Positions 69 to 44,757 of a stretch of DNA of 45,805 nucleotides are shown here, in pieces. The translations under genes and the position numbers were made by a program. Below the pieces are notes generated by a model. The model searched no databases, had not been told where the DNA came from, and saw nothing but the letters and a program-made list of their open reading frames with translations. Each line of letters opens with the position of its first letter. Position 1 is the stretch's first letter. Source of the stretch: Escherichia virus fEg-Eco19; sequence record NC_073314.1; one strand, written 5' to 3'.

Positions 69-97
69 TTGCACACTAAGATATAATAGGCTACTAT
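69..97 (+). promoter_or_regulatory. sigma70-like promoter (TTGCAC-N17-TACTAT) with AATAG-N4-CTATT palindrome over the -10
   Basis: Read directly: TTGCAC, 17-nt spacer actaagatataataggc, TACTAT; ~30 nt upstream of ORF 129..653. Same architecture recurs near 10641-10669(-), 21039-21067(-), 44695-44723(+). Confidence 0.4.
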
Positions 98-128
98 TCA
101 TTTACACAAACGAGAGGAGAGACAGAAG

Positions 129-3241: not shown

Positions 3242-3272
3242 CCCGGCCCTGACCCAGCCGGGATTTTTTTTA
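3242..3272 (+). terminator. rho-independent terminator
   Basis: CCCGGC...GCCGGG stem followed by a run of 8 T. Confidence 0.6.
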
Positions 3273-3293
3273 TCTATTTTCGGTAATGACTAG

Positions 3294-3322
3294 TTGACTA
3301 TTACCACCGACCCTATTATATT
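3294..3322 (+). promoter_or_regulatory. sigma70-like promoter TTGACT-N17-TATATT
   Basis: Read directly; ~40 nt upstream of ORF 3363. Confidence 0.45.
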
Positions 3323-3362: not shown

Positions 3363-3551
3363 ATGACGACTAAGATTAAGCATACCGATAAATGGGGTGA
3401 TTTCCTGGAGATAGAGAAGTGCAGGGATGGTTCATTACTTATAACTTGCACCGACGGTGATAGTGACGAATTAGCTAATGTTAATGTGAGCCTGGATGAT
3501 TTTATGTCTATTGTTGAGCAGGTTATGGCGTTTTATGGAGATGTTAAATGA
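3363..3551 (+). CDS. small hypothetical protein
   Basis: 62-aa ORF, ATG start, purine-rich (AG)n leader. Confidence 0.45.
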   Translation: MTTKIKHTDKWGDFLEIEKCRDGSLLITCTDGDSDELANVNVSLDDFMSIVEQVMAFYGDVK

Positions 3552-3697
3552 AAATCACAGATACCGAAGCATTCAAAGATGCACAACTGATGGCACGCAT
3601 CGCCGTTAGCAACCTGAGCAACAGCATTCCGGCGGATGCGTTCTGGTTCGCTGCTATGCAGACACTGAAAGCAGCTTATGCAGGAGATAAGAAATGA
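3548..3697 (+). CDS. small hypothetical protein (49 aa)
   Basis: ATGA overlap with upstream stop; below the track size cutoff, translated by eye. Confidence 0.3.
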   Translation: MKITDTEAFKDAQLMARIAVSNLSNSIPADAFWFAAMQTLKAAYAGDKK

Positions 3698-3849
3698 GCG
3701 AACAAGGTCAAGTAAGCCAGCCATTACGAGTAGGCCGTAAAGTAAATCACACCCCATTCCCGACACGTGAGGAACTGATGAAACGAAACAGTTTCCCGGG
3801 GCCGGACAAGAACAAGTATCTCAATCGCATGTGGGGAGAGAAGAAATGA
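3694..3849 (+). CDS. small hypothetical protein (51 aa)
   Basis: ATGA overlap chain; translated by eye. Confidence 0.3.
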   Translation: MSEQGQVSQPLRVGRKVNHTPFPTREELMKRNSFPGPDKNKYLNRMWGEKK

Positions 3850-4034
3850 CCGACCGTGAATACGAAAAGATGATGGTAGAGGCCGCAAACGGCAAAACGC
3901 AGAATGCTAAAGCTGAAATAGGGATACTAGATAGGCGGATAGAAGAACAGGCCCGATACCTTGACCGCCTTATGGAGCGCCGCCGTGAACTGATTAACCG
4001 CTTCAACCTGAACAAAGGTGACGCCAATGCCTAA
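3846..4034 (+). CDS. small hypothetical protein, coiled coil
   Basis: Internal ATG of track ORF 3831..4034 (MTDREYEKMM...). Confidence 0.4.
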   Translation: MTDREYEKMMVEAANGKTQNAKAEIGILDRRIEEQARYLDRLMERRRELINRFNLNKGDANA

Positions 4035-4266
4035 AATCACAATCGCATTACTAGAGCGCCGTATTCTGGTGCTTGAGTCAGAGAAACAGACGTTAGGTGG
4101 GCAACTGTCGATTAACGGTGGATTTCAACTGGAGGCGTTTAAGTTGCTACTTGAGCGCATGAAAGCGGACGAAAAGCCTTGCGCGCACGACTACTACATG
4201 CATTTAGTTGATGGGGTACATCGAGTCACATGCTTAAAATGTGGTAAAGCGTATGAAAGCGCCTGA
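4027..4266 (+). CDS. small hypothetical protein with C-terminal zinc-ribbon-like motif
   Basis: Internal ATG of track ORF 4018..4266; CxH...CxxC at C-terminus. Confidence 0.4.
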   Translation: MPKITIALLERRILVLESEKQTLGGQLSINGGFQLEAFKLLLERMKADEKPCAHDYYMHLVDGVHRVTCLKCGKAYESA

Positions 4267-4435
4267 GCCAGTAGTTATTGACGGCGTCCTGTGGAAACCT
4301 TACTCGGTTAACCACATTGACGCCGACGGGAAGAAGTTCAGCTTCTACATTTTTGCAATTAGCCGTGAGCACGCCGCCTGTGTGGTTGATGATATACGAG
4401 AAACGGCGTGGCTCGGTGATGAGATAGTGGGGTGA
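4253..4435 (+). CDS. small hypothetical protein
   Basis: Internal ATG of track ORF 4241..4435 (track start is GTG). Confidence 0.35.
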   Translation: MKAPEPVVIDGVLWKPYSVNHIDADGKKFSFYIFAISREHAACVVDDIRETAWLGDEIVG

Positions 4436-4522
4436 GAGTATGAGTCTTCAGGTTGTTATAAGTCTGGTGGGTCTTAGTTACTTCATCGGGCTGTTGGTTG
4501 GATCTCTGTGGGGTAGATACTA

Positions 4523-4693
4523 ATGTTCAATGATATTAACGCGGCAATCGAAGAAGCAATCTGGCGTCGTTACAACGGTGAGCAACAGCGCCACTTTTGC
4601 CTGGTGCAACGCGGTAACATGGTAGCCGTAGTGCAGGACCGCGATAACAAATATCCTAATGCGATGTGGACAACGAGGAATTTCTTAGGATGA
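4523..4693 (+). CDS. small hypothetical protein (56 aa)
   Basis: Translated by eye; stop overlaps next start. Confidence 0.3.
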   Translation: MFNDINAAIEEAIWRRYNGEQQRHFCLVQRGNMVAVVQDRDNKYPNAMWTTRNFLG

Positions 4694-4926
4694 TTACCAG
4701 CATTCCGAACCTGATTAAAGAATTCGGCACGATGGCTGAGACATGCCGACAAACAGGCCTCAACGAAATGACGATTGCTAAGTACAGCAAAGACGTAAAA
4801 TGCGAGCGACATGTAATTTATAACAACCGTCTGATGACGCACGTTAAGACAAGCCCGGTGTTATTCACGCGCCGCGGTATCACTAAAACAGAGCAACGCA
4901 TCGCTAAAGAGGAGAGTGGGGTATGA
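4690..4926 (+). CDS. small hypothetical protein, possible HTH
   Basis: Internal ATG of track ORF 4666..4926; segment TMAETCRQTGLNEMTIAKY looks HTH-like. Confidence 0.35.
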   Translation: MITSIPNLIKEFGTMAETCRQTGLNEMTIAKYSKDVKCERHVIYNNRLMTHVKTSPVLFTRRGITKTEQRIAKEESGV

Positions 4927-5078
4927 AAAAGTTAACTATCTACTGGAAAACAGGCGCTACGTCAGAACTCGATGTTTTCAGCGTAACGCAGTGCGAGAAG
5001 TTCTGGTATGCCGAAACATTCAACGGTGAAGTTAGAATCCCAATCGCACTGGTAGACGGCGGCGATATAACCGAATAA
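4923..5078 (+). CDS. small hypothetical protein (51 aa)
   Basis: ATGA overlap; translated by eye. Confidence 0.3.
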   Translation: MKKLTIYWKTGATSELDVFSVTQCEKFWYAETFNGEVRIPIALVDGGDITE

Positions 5079-5088
5079 CCCAACCACA

Positions 5089-5113
5089 AGCCCTCTACGG
5101 AGGGCTTTTCTGT
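5089..5113 (+). terminator. rho-independent terminator
   Basis: AGCCCTC-tacg-GAGGGCT followed by TTTTCTGT. Confidence 0.6.
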
Positions 5114-5205
5114 ACATCCCGCCCAATCACCTTATATAATCCCTTTAGACGCGTAGGGCGCGTCTGGTGCGCTCTGATGGTCAGACGCATATGCAAGGGG
5201 ATTCT

Positions 5206-5751
5206 ATGAAGCTGAAACTTAAGCAGCCATCGCCAGAGGTGGTGCAAGCTGCACATGAAGAAGCTGTTAGCGCAAACCGTCGCCGTAAACGACCGCGCGG
5301 TAAACAGAGCCTTTATCAATCATCCCGTAATTCCGCCGCGTTGTGGGACCCGGACTATTGCGACGCGTTAATCGAGTTCTTCGACCGCACGTCATGGGAG
5401 CTTGTGCCTACGTCCAAGGGTGATGAACGCCCGCTGATTCAGGACAAACCGCCGTCACTGGCCCGCTTTGCCTTACGCATCGGCGTCACTATCCCGATTA
5501 TTAAGCTGTGGCTGCGCGAGATTCCCGCATTCGCAGAAGCATGGGAGACAGCGCAGGCATTGGAAGAGGCATACTTCACTGAGACAGGAGCCGCTGGCAT
5601 CTCTGCTACGTTTGCCGCAGCTAAGCTGGGCCTTAGCAAAGAGAAACCAGTTGAATCCACCGAAGAAACAGCACCGACTGAGATTATTTTCAGTGTAGCG
5701 GAGCCTGTAGGTAAAATCGTAACAACGAACATGGGCGAGGTAGAGGAATGA
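5206..5751 (+). CDS. terminase small subunit (by position)
   Basis: Internal ATG (MKLKLKQ...) with AAGGGG RBS; immediately upstream of and overlapping terminase large subunit; basic N-terminal region. Confidence 0.5.
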   Translation: MKLKLKQPSPEVVQAAHEEAVSANRRRKRPRGKQSLYQSSRNSAALWDPDYCDALIEFFDRTSWELVPTSKGDERPLIQDKPPSLARFALRIGVTIPIIKLWLREIPAFAEAWETAQALEEAYFTETGAAGISATFAAAKLGLSKEKPVESTEETAPTEIIFSVAEPVGKIVTTNMGEVEE

Positions 5752-6998
5752 GTATTCAGTTATCTGCCCCGCAGGCGCTGTTCCTGAATTGCGATAACAA
5801 ATACAAAGCCTACGTCGGCGGCTTCGGCAGCGGAAAGACATTTGTCGGCTGTCTCGACCTGCTTACGTTCATGCTCAAGCACCCTGGTACGCGCCTCGGA
5901 TACTTCGGCCCAACATATCCGGCTATCCGTGACATCTTCTACCCAACATTCGAGGAAGCGGCTAATTTACTCGGTCTCGATGTGCTGGTTAAATCCGGCG
6001 ACAAAGAAGTCGTGGTTACCCGCGGTAAGACGGTGCTCGGGACTGTTATCTGCCGCTCGATGGATAACCCCGGTTCTATCGTCGGCTTCAAAATCGCCGC
6101 TGCGGTCGTTGATGAACTGGACGTATTGAGCCGTGAAAAAGCTGAACTGGCGTGGAACAAAATCGTCGCCCGTATGCGTCTTGTTATCCCTGGCGTAATT
6201 AACCACATCTCTGTCACCACGACGCCAGAAGGGTTCAAGTTCGTTTACTCCAAGTTCAAAGAGAATCCGACACCGAGTTACTCAATGGTGCAGGCCTCCA
6301 CACACGAGAACGCGCGATTCCTGCCGCCGGATTACATTAGCTCGCTGACCGAGACTTACCCAGCGCAACTGATTAACGCGTACCTGAATGGGGAGTTCGT
6401 TAACCTGACATCCGGCAGCGTCTACTACGCCTACGACCGACGTAAGCATCGCAGCAAAGAGACAATCCAACCGGGCGACACGCTGTACATCGGGCAGGAC
6501 TTCAACGTTACGAAGAACGCCAGCGCTGTGTATGTGCAACGTAAAGACGGCTGGCACGCGGTAGCAGAACTTAAGGGCCTGTTCGATACGCCAGATACCG
6601 TGCGTGTGATTACCGAGAAGTGGAAGTCGCAAGGCCACCGCATCGTCGTTTACCCGGACGCCAGCGGCAAGAACCGCAAAACCAACTCGGCATCAATCTC
6701 CGATATCGCCTTACTACAGCAGGCCGGTTTTGATGTTCGCGCTAAATCCGCCAACCCACCGGTTAAAGACCGTGTTTTAGCCGTGAATACCGCGCTGGAA
6801 AAAGGTAAGCTGTGGGTTAACGACCGCTTATGCCCTGAGATAGCGAAGACACTGGAGCAGCAGGCATATGATGATAACGGAGAGCCTGCTAAAGACGGTG
6901 TCATTGACCATATGGCGGATGCTCTCGGCTATCCTGTAGTTTATGAGATGCCGGTGGTTAAGCCAGTAATCAACATCCCGGTGACTTTCGCACTTTAA
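5748..6998 (+). CDS. terL: terminase large subunit
   Basis: Walker A GGFGSGKTF near N-terminus; 416 aa; followed by portal. Confidence 0.8.
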   Translation: MSIQLSAPQALFLNCDNKYKAYVGGFGSGKTFVGCLDLLTFMLKHPGTRLGYFGPTYPAIRDIFYPTFEEAANLLGLDVLVKSGDKEVVVTRGKTVLGTVICRSMDNPGSIVGFKIAAAVVDELDVLSREKAELAWNKIVARMRLVIPGVINHISVTTTPEGFKFVYSKFKENPTPSYSMVQASTHENARFLPPDYISSLTETYPAQLINAYLNGEFVNLTSGSVYYAYDRRKHRSKETIQPGDTLYIGQDFNVTKNASAVYVQRKDGWHAVAELKGLFDTPDTVRVITEKWKSQGHRIVVYPDASGKNRKTNSASISDIALLQQAGFDVRAKSANPPVKDRVLAVNTALEKGKLWVNDRLCPEIAKTLEQQAYDDNGEPAKDGVIDHMADALGYPVVYEMPVVKPVINIPVTFAL

Positions 6999-10066: not shown

Positions 10067-10069
10067 TAA

Positions 10070-10090
10070 AAGGCCCCGAAAGGGGCCTTA
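10070..10090. terminator. bidirectional hairpin terminator
   Basis: AAGGCCCC-gaaa-GGGGCCTT between convergent ORFs 9605..10066(+) and 10094..10615(-). Confidence 0.5.
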
Positions 10091-10640: not shown

Positions 10641-10669
10641 GAATAGTACCCTATTATATTGGGGTGTGC
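10641..10669 (-). promoter_or_regulatory. sigma70-like promoter (TTGCAC-N17-TACTAT class) with AATAG-N4-CTATT palindrome
   Basis: Reverse complement reads TTGCACaccccaatataatagggTACTAT; ~30 nt upstream of the ATG at 10615. Confidence 0.45.
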
Positions 10670-19191: not shown

Positions 19192-19196
19192 AACTA

Positions 19197-19220
19197 AGGC
19201 CCCTTTCGGGGCCTTTTTCT
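19197..19220. terminator. bidirectional hairpin terminator
   Basis: AGGCCCC-tttc-GGGGCCT with T-run; sits between convergent genes. Confidence 0.5.
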
Positions 19221-20997: not shown

Positions 20998-21038
20998 GGG
21001 GTAGCTCCTGTTTGAGTTAACATTGTTGGTGTAAGTGA

Positions 21039-21067
21039 ATAGTACCCTATTATATTGGGGTGTGCAA
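21039..21067 (-). promoter_or_regulatory. sigma70-like promoter (TTGCAC-N17-TACTAT class) with AATAG-N4-CTATT palindrome
   Basis: Near-identical to the 10641-10669 element (shared run GAATAGTACCCTATTATATTGGGGTGTGCAA). Confidence 0.45.
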
Positions 21068-24233: not shown

Positions 24234-24258
24234 AAGGCCCGAAAGGGCCTTATTTCTC
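24234..24258. terminator. hairpin terminator (bidirectional context)
   Basis: AAGGCCC-gaaa-GGGCCTT followed by ATTTCTCC. Confidence 0.5.
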
Positions 24259-31231: not shown

Positions 31232-31258
31232 AAGGCCCCAAACGGGGCCTTTTCTCTA
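31232..31258 (+). terminator. rho-independent terminator
   Basis: AAGGCCCC-aaac-GGGGCCTT followed by TTCTC. Confidence 0.55.
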
Positions 31259-34004: not shown

Positions 34005-34292
34005 TTAACTATAATAGTTCGCTATTAGGTCGTCAACCTGTTTAAACGAACCGACGACAAAAACATTAGCACCACGCTTACGCATCCGCTCGTGTTCCCG
34101 TAACTGGTGTGGGTCTGGCTTCGTGTTTTCGTCTTTCTTAACCTCGACAAACCAGACGATGCCGCCAGGGAGAATTACCAGCAGGTCGGGGGCGCCTACT
34201 CTATTTTCGTACGACAATTTGCGTACGAGGCCCCCCAGGGCCTCGAATCGCTCTTTTGCGTATTTCTGGATGCGCCCCTCAGGCGTACTCAT
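34005..34292 (-). CDS. VRR-NUC domain nuclease
   Basis: GAPDLLVILPGGIVWFVEVKK...HQLREHERMRKRGANVFVV matches the PD-(D/E)XK core of VRR-NUC proteins. Confidence 0.6.
   Translation of the reverse strand: MSTPEGRIQKYAKERFEALGGLVRKLSYENRVGAPDLLVILPGGIVWFVEVKKDENTKPDPHQLREHERMRKRGANVFVVGSFKQVDDLIANYYS
34008..34036 (-). promoter_or_regulatory. sigma70 promoter TTGACG-N17-TATAGT with AATAG-N4-CTATT palindrome in spacer
   Basis: Reverse complement reads TTGACGacctaatagcgaactatTATAGT. Confidence 0.45.
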
Positions 34293-38493: not shown

Positions 38494-38522
38494 ACTATAA
38501 TAGCCAACTATTCAGGTGTCAA
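38494..38522 (-). promoter_or_regulatory. sigma70 promoter TTGACA-N17-TATAGT with AATAG-N4-CTATT palindrome in spacer
   Basis: Reverse complement reads TTGACAcctgaatagttggctatTATAGT. Confidence 0.5.
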
Positions 38523-40424: not shown

Positions 40425-40925
40425 TTATTCTTCTTCGAAATACTTGTTCTTGATTGCTGTCAGGCGTTCCAGGTACTCGGCCAGGTCTTCGTCTTTAATC
40501 GCGGCAATCTTCATCTTCTTACCGGTGAACTCTTCCAGCAGTTCATCAGAATCGTCGCACGCGGCATCGCTCGGACCTTCGTTAATTGCATCGTCGATAG
40601 CCTGAATCTGGTCACGAAGAGACTGGTAATCGACTTCTTCTTTCTCTTCTTCTGGTTCTGGCGTCGGCTCCTCTACTTTAGCTTTACGCGGCTTACGTTT
40701 TGGCTTCTCTTCTTCTGCCGGTTTAGTGTCGACGATGTCTTCACCTTCAACCGGGATTTCTTTTGTTTCTTCTTTAATACTTTCAGAGAACTGCTCAATT
40801 TTATGAGCGGCTACCGCGGCAGCCTCTTTGGCAGTAGTTGGCGCGAACTGTTTCGCACTATTCGCAGCAATCAGTTCATGTGCAACTACGAAACGTTCCA
40901 GTAATACTAAGAATTTCTCTAACAT
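40425..40925 (-). CDS. acidic coiled-coil protein, early gene
   Basis: 166 aa, Glu/Asp-rich with a central KPKRKPRKAK patch; driven by the strong promoter at ~40957-40985. Confidence 0.5.
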   Translation of the reverse strand: MLEKFLVLLERFVVAHELIAANSAKQFAPTTAKEAAAVAAHKIEQFSESIKEETKEIPVEGEDIVDTKPAEEEKPKRKPRKAKVEEPTPEPEEEKEEVDYQSLRDQIQAIDDAINEGPSDAACDDSDELLEEFTGKKMKIAAIKDEDLAEYLERLTAIKNKYFEEE

Positions 40926-41030
40926 TTGTTTCTCTCCTCTCGTTTGGTATGGGCTAACTATAATAGTGAACTATTCACATGTCAATGGGCTTTTCTAAAA
41001 TAATTAATATGGTACTATTCACATATCAAC
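40889..41030. repeat. direct repeat copy 1 (142 bp), divergent promoter/operator region
   Basis: Identical by eye to 41310..41451; contains the first 12 codons of ORF 40425..40925, TTGACA-N17-TATAGT (minus), an AATAG-N4-CTATT palindrome and a plus-strand TGgTACTAT extended -10. Confidence 0.7.
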
Positions 41031-41309: not shown

Positions 41310-41451
41310 CGAAACGTTCCAGTAATACTAAGAATTTCTCTAACATTTGTTTCTCTCCTCTCGTTTGGTATGGGCTAACTATAATAGTGAACTATTCACA
41401 TGTCAATGGGCTTTTCTAAAATAATTAATATGGTACTATTCACATATCAAC
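41310..41451. repeat. direct repeat copy 2 (142 bp)
   Basis: Second copy of promoter/operator region plus a 12-codon 5' fragment of ORF 40425..40925; also contains the last three codons and stop of the primase gene. Confidence 0.7.
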
Positions 41452-44694: not shown

Positions 44695-44723
44695 TTGCAC
44701 ACCCCAACATAATAGGATACTAT
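44695..44723 (+). promoter_or_regulatory. sigma70-like promoter (TTGCAC-N17-TACTAT class) with AATAG-N4-CTATT palindrome
   Basis: TTGCACaccccaacataataggaTACTAT, ~35 nt upstream of ORF start. Confidence 0.45.
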
Positions 44724-44757
44724 TCACTTATCGAAACGAGACAGATGAGTGAGGGTT

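Follow-up and report, generated by a model that had tools for sequence, protein, structure and literature searches.

The 45,805-nucleotide genome of Escherichia virus fEg-Eco19 (NC_073314.1), referred to in its entirety as the window, is by sequence comparison that of a Kagunavirus-like siphophage of the subfamily Guernseyvirinae. We have analysed the leader of its terminase small subunit gene, terS, where a preliminary description had drawn attention to a palindrome. The palindrome is present as described, a perfect inverted repeat of AGACGCG (5147-5153) and CGCGTCT (5159-5165) around the 5-nt spacer TAGGG, as is the TATAAT box at 5135-5140; the palindrome and a further element, GTCAGACGC, found at 5180-5188, both lie between this box and the start of terS. 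The placement immediately upstream of terS also holds, with the small correction that the ATG stands at 5206-5208 and follows a Shine-Dalgarno sequence. The open reading frames (ORFs) and other features of the locus are collected in Table 1.

Table 1. Features of the terS locus, with further sites in the window to which the text refers
Feature	Position	Strand	Description
Last small ORF of the upstream same-strand cluster, 51 aa	4923-5078	+	phrog_22569; function unassigned; stop at 5078
Intrinsic terminator	5088-5113	+	Stem GCCCTC/GAGGGC (5090-5095 / 5100-5105, extendable 5088-5107), UACG tetraloop, then TTTTCTGT
Sigma-70-type promoter	5111-5140	+	-35 TGTACA (5111-5116), 18-nt spacer, -10 TATAAT (5135-5140)
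P0, 5' strand	5132-5145	+	UUAUAUAAUCCCUU; -10 box and discriminator; anti-Shine-Dalgarno; upstream of the predicted transcription start
Hairpin 1 (the palindrome)	5146-5166	+	9 bp including terminal U5146·G5166 and U5154·G5158; AGG triloop 5155-5157
Hairpin 2	5167-5190	+	GUGCG/CGCAU outer stem, bulged C5172, UCUGA/UCAGA inner stem, UGG triloop; contains GTCAGACGC
Ribosome site	5195-5209	+	Shine-Dalgarno AAGGGG 5195-5200, spacer, AUG 5206-5208; 5196-5209 is the 3' strand of P0
terS, terminase small subunit, 181 aa	5206-5751	+	phrog_3064 'terminase', E 2.5e-72; annotated terS in relatives
terL	5748-6998	+	Terminase_6N/6C
Hairpin after the Hoc-like gene	10069-10090		AAAGGCCCC-GAAA-GGGGCCTTT; minus-strand RusA-like gene next
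TGAATAGT-N3-CTATTAT sites	83-98(-), 10642-10657(+), 21038-21053(+), 34011-34028(both), 38497-38512(-), 40960-40975(-), 41381-41396(-), 44709-44724(-)	in brackets	Promoter-like family with palindrome

Taken singly, the palindrome is not remarkable. The full AGACGCG-TAGGG-CGCGTCT has its sole exact match in the window at this place, and perfect 7-bp stems with 3-8-nt loops give 43 overlapping matches, compared with 18.8 +/- 5.4 in dinucleotide shuffles, so that one such palindrome does not stand out from chance. It is through its conservation with covariation in related phages that, as judged from the aligned leaders, it exceeds what chance would give.

Homologous leaders were gathered from 50 IMG/VR contigs encoding a close relative of TerS, from pattern scans and from GenBank phages, about 60 related phage sequences in all. 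The groups compared were Kagunavirus, Jerseyvirus, two groups resembling phages St161 and FSL SP-031 (C1 and C2, together called St161-like), Hafnia phage TS33, Serratia phage Smarc3 and Dhillonvirus. Every one of these groups has the same fixed cassette, consisting of an intrinsic terminator, a sigma-70 promoter, hairpin 1, hairpin 2, a Shine-Dalgarno sequence and terS, and the TerS proteins of the groups are 24-33% identical to that of the window. Hairpin 1 is the palindrome; hairpin 2 abuts it with no linker and is separated from the Shine-Dalgarno sequence by four unpaired bases.

The stems of the two hairpins vary in sequence and retain their pairing. Among 31 unique Kagunavirus, Jerseyvirus and St161-like leaders, which represent four lineages, seven of the nine pairs of hairpin 1 vary, and the varying pairs are all Watson-Crick or G·U save for the terminal pair in C2 and one singleton; two-sided changes are seen in two pairs (U·G ↔ G-C and G-C ↔ U·G). 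The changes in hairpin 2 are C-G ↔ A-U (also C-G ↔ A-U ↔ C-G and U-A ↔ G-C) and G·U ↔ A-U, and its bulge shifts from the 5' to the 3' side in C1 and C2. Alignment A2, comprising 16 distinct cores, has 98.8% of its cells paired, compared with 91.7% in shuffles, and a covariation score of 0.291, compared with 0.169; in each case the observed value was reached by 0 of 500 shuffles. Controls in which the pairing partner was slid along the sequence were 20-54% paired. RNAalifold, run on the structural alignment, and single-sequence folds of Kagunavirus, Jerseyvirus and C2 leaders return the same two hairpins.

The stems of the more divergent lineages depart further still from that of the window. 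Hairpin 1 of Serratia phage Smarc3 has a wholly different stem (AAGGCCC/GGGCUUU) in the same place and with the same AGG loop, and the Dhillonvirus stem is AGAUGGC/GCCGUCU or AGGUGGU/GCCACCU; across the Serratia, Hafnia and Dhillonvirus comparison the inner stem of hairpin 2 becomes GCCGA/UCGGC. Some 10 non-Watson-Crick pairs occur at the level of lineages, and all are G·U on the sense strand, with zero A·C. A G·U pair on this strand corresponds to an A·C mismatch on the other, and we conclude that the pattern points to selection on the sense-strand RNA rather than on the opposite strand or a palindrome of duplex DNA. Conservation is higher in the hairpin loops than in the stems, and the apex of hairpin 2, GAUGGUC (5176-5182), is invariant in all lineages save for a single Kagunavirus variant, L008, which has GAUGAUC.

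We built a covariance model from the Kagunavirus, Jerseyvirus and St161-like sequences. Its best match in the window, at 5146-5190, has 72.6 bits and the next one 8.5 bits; the element is therefore present in single copy. The Hafnia element, which lies outside the seed, scores 52.5 bits, and the Dhillonvirus elements are marginal at 15-16.5 bits. With this seed the elements of the Serratia phage, of WF5505 (L146) and of L237 were not found at the expected place, and these were recognised by position and folding. A search of Rfam 15 left the leader unmatched at E <= 10 (positions 4000-6500 of the window) and the leaders of five relatives unmatched at E <= 1, and our literature search yielded no published description of the terS leader.

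In four St161-like leaders (L051, L053, L119 and L129), the 3' arm of hairpin 1 (GUCU) can pair with AGAC just past hairpin 2. This alternative fold is of similar energy (minimum free energy frequency 0.03) and may be a lineage-specific switch.

The GACGC repeats of the preliminary description could not be upheld. The heptamer CAGACGC occurs 6 times, compared with 6.6 expected, which is no enrichment, and the copy at 5182-5188 is not conserved, being CATACGC in Jerseyvirus and CATAACCGC in the St161-like group C1; this copy is simply the 3' strand of the second hairpin. A switch hairpin, mutually exclusive with those described, between GCGTCTG (5160-5166) and CAGACGC (5182-5188) was rejected, as its pairing is broken in Jerseyvirus (C·U) whereas hairpin 2 is kept there by a compensatory change. 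Nor does the palindrome resemble an intrinsic terminator, hairpin 1 being followed by GGUGCGCUC with no U run. Judging from the sequence, we also set aside, for want of conservation or fit, CsrA sites (the loops lack GGA), a lambda-type boxA (the CGCUCU of Kagunavirus is not conserved), an RNase III substrate (its stems would need to be longer) and, at about +30, a sigma-dependent pause element (GATGGT).

Matches to CGATGGTCG in unrelated contigs were discounted as chance or as other elements, for example the leaders of small heat-shock genes. The Hsp20/IbpA-like genes of unrelated low-G+C viral contigs (L165, L167, L201, L228, L264 and L197) are preceded by a hairpin whose apex is GCCGAUGGUCGGG and, after it, by CUUGCUUAAU..AAGGAG. 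By their sequence these leaders look like a ROSE-type thermometer, and their resemblance to hairpin 2 is probably coincidental because the search pattern forces the match.

The longest terS ORF begins at a GTG at 5167, inside hairpin 2, and were terS to start at this in-frame GTG/ATG the hairpin would be coding. Gene callers do place the start there, 39 nt upstream, in L026, L035, L044, L046, L047 and many GenBank records. We rejected this start on several grounds: substitutions are mostly non-synonymous over 5167-5205 and mostly synonymous after 5206; the frame is interrupted by a stop codon in PSP2-22; in L072/L113 and Dhillonvirus the upstream ATG lies in another frame; and the strong Shine-Dalgarno sequence stands before 5206 instead. 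On this pattern of substitutions and signals the true start of terS is the ATG at 5206. Many database records themselves begin in the leader region, some at the in-frame GTG/ATG upstream and others some 10 nt ahead of a start codon, and this looks like an annotation convention rather than a physical end.

Upstream of the hairpins, the stem of the terminator covaries in relatives (GCCCTC/GAGGGC versus GCCCGC/GCGGGC, with one G·U in L049). The terminator escaped an automated scan because the T tract is taken up by the A-T extension of its stem. Same-strand genes followed by a terminator were found upstream of the cassette in all lineages looked at. The terS promoter scores 10/12 as a sigma-70 promoter, and the pattern TGTACA-N16-19-TAYAAT has 1 occurrence in the window where 0.03 are expected. 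Its hexamers are kept in relatives, whereas the sequences of spacer and discriminator diverge. The -10 box is TATAAT in all groups save Jerseyvirus (TACAAT), and across lineages it is accompanied by a -35-like hexamer at a distance of 17-18 nt or, instead, by a TG extension; lineage-specific forms are TTGCCT-17-TATAAT (St161-like, Serratia), TTGCTA-17-TATAAT (Hafnia) and the extended -10 TGnTATAAT (Dhillonvirus). The terS transcript is predicted to start at about A5147. In every lineage the first paired base of hairpin 1 lies 6-9 nt past the -10 box, so that, given the usual start distance, a transcript initiated at this promoter would begin with 0-3 unpaired nucleotides and then a stable stem-loop.

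The -10 box and discriminator are in addition complementary to the ribosome site of terS. An inverted-repeat scan revealed a 13-nt, 85% complementary repeat (5134-5146 and 5195-5207), and the long-range helix, which we call P0, joins the -10 box and discriminator to the Shine-Dalgarno sequence, spacer and AUG over 13-14 bp in the window. Thirteen representatives were folded twice, once from 12 nt upstream of the -10 box (long) and once from the predicted start 7 nt past it (short). P0 is closed in the long transcripts of 11 of the 13 representatives, in differing registers, its length being 14 bp in Kagunavirus, 12 in Jerseyvirus, 9 in Hafnia, 5+5 in Dhillonvirus and 4+5 in C2. The computed mean probability that the Shine-Dalgarno sequence is unpaired is 0.13-0.53 in the long forms and 0.42-0.98 in the short forms; for the window the computed accessibilities are 0.32 and 0.74, respectively. 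Folding also indicates that the palindrome by itself leaves the ribosome site unoccluded.

The P0 duplex outperforms composition-matched shuffles of its 3' strand in Kagunavirus, Jerseyvirus, C2, Hafnia and Dhillonvirus (p 0.0015-0.018), five of the nine lineages tested. In the alignment of Kagunavirus and Jerseyvirus, 89% of the P0 cells are paired and there are 2 two-sided changes. One couples position 3 of the -10 box to a spacer base (U-A in some Kagunavirus, C-G in Jerseyvirus), and the other couples a discriminator base to a Shine-Dalgarno base (C-G in Kagunavirus, U-A in Jerseyvirus). These comparisons support P0, less cleanly than they do the hairpins. Structure, promoter-like signals, complementarity, conservation and covariation are what the analysis of the leaders shows.

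The spacer of the promoter contains a second, imperfect anti-Shine-Dalgarno copy, AATCACCTT at 5125-5133, compared with AATCCCTTT at 5138-5146 (AATCCCCTT in most relatives). In the variant L020 the predicted fold pairs the Shine-Dalgarno sequence with this upstream spacer copy instead.

In the reading that we tentatively favour, the terS-terL-portal-head operon has a conserved, cis-acting RNA leader with the palindrome as its hairpin 1, and this leader would gate translation by the origin of the transcript. Polymerase at the terS promoter would start at about A5147, and its transcript would be free of the anti-Shine-Dalgarno strand. Such an mRNA would be protected by hairpin 1 at its 5' terminus, and its ribosome site would be open and translated. 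Transcripts leaking past the upstream terminator would carry the -10 and discriminator sequence and could fold into a three-way junction of P0, hairpin 1 and hairpin 2, in which the Shine-Dalgarno sequence and AUG would be buried. Terminase would as a result go untranslated from foreign transcription, that is, from upstream and probably earlier transcription. Inferred are the point at which transcription begins, the consequences for translation and mRNA stability, and the biological reason for such a gate. The cluster that ends with the 51-aa ORF is a possible source of such read-through. This cluster of small same-strand ORFs spans 3363-5078 and has its own terminator and promoter-like site near 3260-3320, which makes read-through from a differently timed unit plausible. 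The preliminary description had offered a packaging site or a translational control hairpin as functions; the latter comes close, in that the leader is conserved on the sense strand and has a long-range helix over the Shine-Dalgarno sequence and AUG of terS, and the former is unsupported.

The mechanism has relatives among insertion sequences. IS10 and IS50 are reportedly subject to 'fold-back inhibition' of read-through transcripts, as Davis, Simons & Kleckner are said to have described in 1985 and Schulz & Reznikoff in 1991. In common with these, the phage leader has a segment, upstream of its own (predicted) start, that is complementary to the ribosome site and would silence only externally initiated transcripts; in common with IS10, IS50 and IS200, it has an upstream terminator that would limit impinging transcription. 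It differs from all three in that the gene encodes a terminase and not a transposase, that the promoter itself, through its -10 box and discriminator, supplies the anti-Shine-Dalgarno strand, and that two conserved hairpins lie between the strands of P0, giving a three-way junction. At the left end of IS200, a terminator acts against impinging transcription and a stem-loop sequesters the Shine-Dalgarno sequence (PMC4513863), but this stem-loop lies inside the native 5' untranslated region and not upstream of the start.

A number of points weigh against gating by transcript origin. Folding gave modest z-scores (-1.3 to -2.5). Few lineages were compared and, as these are related, the independent compensatory events amount to a handful only. 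With the strand windows chosen, the shuffle test of P0 was non-significant for St161 (p 0.21), for the Dhillonvirus-like contig L237 (0.10) and for Serratia (0.44). Non-cognate P0 strands pair about equally to cognate ones, although this strand-swap test is uninformative because the strands are too similar across lineages. Within Kagunavirus, P0 contains uncompensated mismatches, U·C in 13/17 variants and A·G in 7/17. Both strands have other duties, the one as -10 box and the other as Shine-Dalgarno sequence, so that their complementarity may be partly inherited and not selected. A perfect -10 box should fire from the onset of infection, and the timing rationale for blocking the translation of read-through transcripts is unclear; the model also leaves the invariant apex GAUGGUC of hairpin 2 unexplained. 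Our literature search found no transcription start, RNA half-life or translation data for these phages, and no mapped starts in Guernseyvirinae.

Two alternatives are serious rivals, in a way that a DNA operator and a put-like antiterminator are not. The hairpins might together constitute a 5'-terminal protective structure of the terS mRNA and nothing else, the complementarity of -10 box and Shine-Dalgarno sequence being incidental. Stabilising 5'-terminal stem-loops are said to protect E. coli mRNAs and to be found in hp1 of the E. coli ompA 5' untranslated region and in the T7 phi10 leader (work ascribed to Emory, Bouvet & Belasco in 1992 and Mertens et al. in 1996), and the phage leader resembles them in placing a stable hairpin a few nucleotides from the predicted 5' end of a highly expressed mRNA, with structure and not sequence conserved. 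The locking of hairpin 1 at its distance from the -10 box in all lineages and the conservation of its pairing, though not of its stem sequence, suit this account, as do the uncompensated mismatches of P0 within Kagunavirus and its weak statistics in three lineages. In the phage, however, the 5' end is predicted from the promoter, stabilisation is itself a prediction, and there is a second hairpin whose sequence-invariant apex a passive stabiliser would not need. P0, furthermore, is predicted in most representatives in spite of their differing registers, beats shuffles in five lineages and has undergone two two-sided changes. We consider protection alone unlikely. In the other rival, most terS mRNA would contain P0 and would be silent until a trans-acting factor bound hairpin 2 at GAUGGUC and remodelled the junction. 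Such a factor might be encoded by the phage, as a late protein or as TerS itself, or by the host; alternatively, it might act as a repressor that stabilises the junction. Such an operator would account for an apex that is conserved alongside TerS proteins of such low identity while variation is tolerated in the lower stem and throughout hairpin 1, and P0 does cover the Shine-Dalgarno sequence and AUG. In phage Mu, a translation-inhibitory structure covers the Shine-Dalgarno sequence and start codon of the Com-controlled mom gene next to a possible protein-binding hairpin. The arrangement in the phage leader is alike, and may serve as a working analogy, for hairpin 2 only. Regulation of this kind would need a transcription start upstream of the conserved promoter, whose -35 box, spacing and -10 box would then be unexplained, and we identified no candidate binding protein, Com-like or otherwise, and no match to CsrA sites (GGA loops), to boxA/boxB or to any Rfam family. 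We regard it as quite unlikely.

The remaining explanations place the function in the DNA or in the elongating polymerase. Were the leader a packaging (pac) site, TerS would bind the duplex palindromes, AGACGCG...CGCGTCT and/or TGATGGTCA, upstream of its own gene and so start headful packaging. Known pac sites include pacL, pacC and pacR of SPP1, around the gene 1 promoter, the pac of P22, within gene 3, and that of P1, with its hexamer repeats. The phage element is like these in its location at the terS gene of a phage family that packages by the headful mechanism, and it adjoins terS as the SPP1 pac does; it differs in having an RNA-type pattern of substitutions and no conserved repeated DNA boxes. 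The TerS core (residues ~49-126) is homologous across the lineages that share GATGGTC, so that a shared DNA specificity is not impossible, and by our reading of its sequence this core probably holds a helix-turn-helix, although a Pfam search of TerS found no domain. An argument that the DNA-binding domains of TerS differ between lineages was withdrawn for this reason. GATGGTC may thus be read as DNA by TerS as well; it is the only sequence-invariant part of the element, and it is placed at the apex of a hairpin. A pac function is hard to reconcile with stems that change by way of G·U and never A·C, as expected of selection on one RNA strand, with the tolerance of bulges and register shifts, with the loss of the GACGC 'repeat' in relatives, with the full replacement of the hairpin 1 sequence in the Serratia phage, its structure retained, or with an element that tracks the promoter and not the type of TerS. 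PhageTerm and restriction data on relatives, finally, give no fixed terminus and no submolar pac fragment: Jerseyvirus K47 was classed by PhageTerm as 'P1-like headful' and has a circle-like restriction pattern with no submolar fragment (PMC10783031), the ends of Se_F1 are random and permuted (PMC9409062), and in Kagunavirus fBC-Eco01 termini were undetected (PMC9825357). Our literature search found no mapped pac position in Guernseyvirinae. We judge a pac site improbable, and the palindrome should not be taken as an obvious pac candidate in these phages.

The perfect 7-N5-7 palindrome does sit exactly at the predicted +1, as would an operator of 19 bp over the transcription start to which a dimeric repressor or activator of the terS promoter could bind. 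Its DNA symmetry nevertheless decays in relatives (AGACGCT / GGTGTCT; GAGGTGCG / CGCGTCTC), where the RNA pairing is retained; there is no second copy in the genome, and the other promoters of the phage have a different palindrome, AATAGT-N3-CTATT. We hold this to be very improbable. Just as remote is a polymerase-modifying antiterminator RNA like put of HK022, in which two stem-loops past the promoter would confer resistance to terminators. Two linkerless stem-loops that follow a promoter directly and head an operon of several genes are what such an RNA would look like, but the phage element is 45 nt long and put is about 65-70 nt. There is, besides, no strong hairpin to be read through between 5206 and the end of the unit at 10069, the later structural genes have promoters of their own at 10642 and 21038, and the element has no similarity to any catalogued RNA.

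A broader claim can be attached to the favoured reading, namely that the cassette is an undescribed, widely conserved class of cis-regulatory RNA in enterobacterial siphophages (Guernseyvirinae, Dhillonvirus and relatives) that gates terminase synthesis. In this class a three-way junction would use the -10 box as anti-Shine-Dalgarno strand, translation would be set by the promoter, and the GAUGGUC hairpin would be the receptor for a phage or host factor. We regard this as possible but doubtful. The kinds of mechanism involved, that is, 5' stem-loops, sequestration of the Shine-Dalgarno sequence and protection from external transcription, are already known; what is new is their combination in a phage terminase operon, the -10 box as anti-Shine-Dalgarno strand, and the invariant apex of hairpin 2. 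Terminase cuts and packages phage DNA, and its mistimed or misdosed synthesis is likely to be costly. Jersey-like, K1-specific and similar lytic siphophages find wide use in phage therapy and biocontrol. If the reading is true, the leader would be a compact and portable case of promoter-dependent translation, in which a gene is read or silenced according to the origin of its mRNA. It would also supply a new motif for catalogues of RNA families and correct the annotation of the terS start codon in many deposited genomes.

The 900 bases around the leader are 88-94% identical to those of many Escherichia K1-type phages and 80-90% identical to those of Salmonella Jersey-like phages. Many Kagunavirus genomes align to the window only downstream of a mosaic boundary at ~5068-5086. 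This break in homology indicates that terminator, promoter, leader and terS travel as a separate mosaic unit, the small genes upstream being exchangeable. Among these is an 86-aa ORF at 4666-4926, the second gene ahead of terS, with a weak resemblance to NinH (PF06322, E 4e-4, which falls short of the Pfam cut-off; phrog_268); its counterpart in phage XY2 is annotated 'transcriptional regulator'.

Downstream, the stop codon of terS overlaps the start of terL (ATGA, 5748-5751), and terL is followed by the genes for the portal, a MuF-like head morphogenesis protein and a Hoc-like decoration protein. The terS transcription unit, comprising terS, terL and the portal, head morphogenesis and decoration genes, probably ends at the hairpin after this last gene; an inverted-repeat scan found no strong, terminator-like hairpins between 5206 and 10069. 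For the head and tail genes further downstream there are separate promoter motifs, at 10642 and 21038. Terminator-type hairpins with the common stem AAGGCCCC/GGGGCCTT recur at 10070-10089, 19196-19215, 24234-24251 and 31232-31251, at module boundaries of the structural region.

The promoter-like sites elsewhere in the genome form a family with the palindrome TGAATAGT-N3-CTATTAT, for which there are 36 matches at <=3 mismatches, compared with 10 expected; unlike these, the terS promoter is without this palindrome. The sites appear to fall into two classes, one with a consensus TTGACA -35 box (38497, 40960, 41381 and 34011) and one without a -35 box and with a conserved downstream ATTGGGGTGTGCAAG (83, 10642, 21038 and 44709). 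The palindrome is probably the operator of a phage regulator. The same motif occurs in phage fBC-Eco01, where it was attributed to a phage RNA polymerase (PMC9825357). A perfect direct repeat of 142 nt (40889-41030 and 41310-41451), its copies 421 nt apart, contains in each copy a TTGACA/AATAGT promoter and the start of a small ORF, and could have arisen by tandem duplication of a region with an early promoter, unless it is an artefact of assembly.

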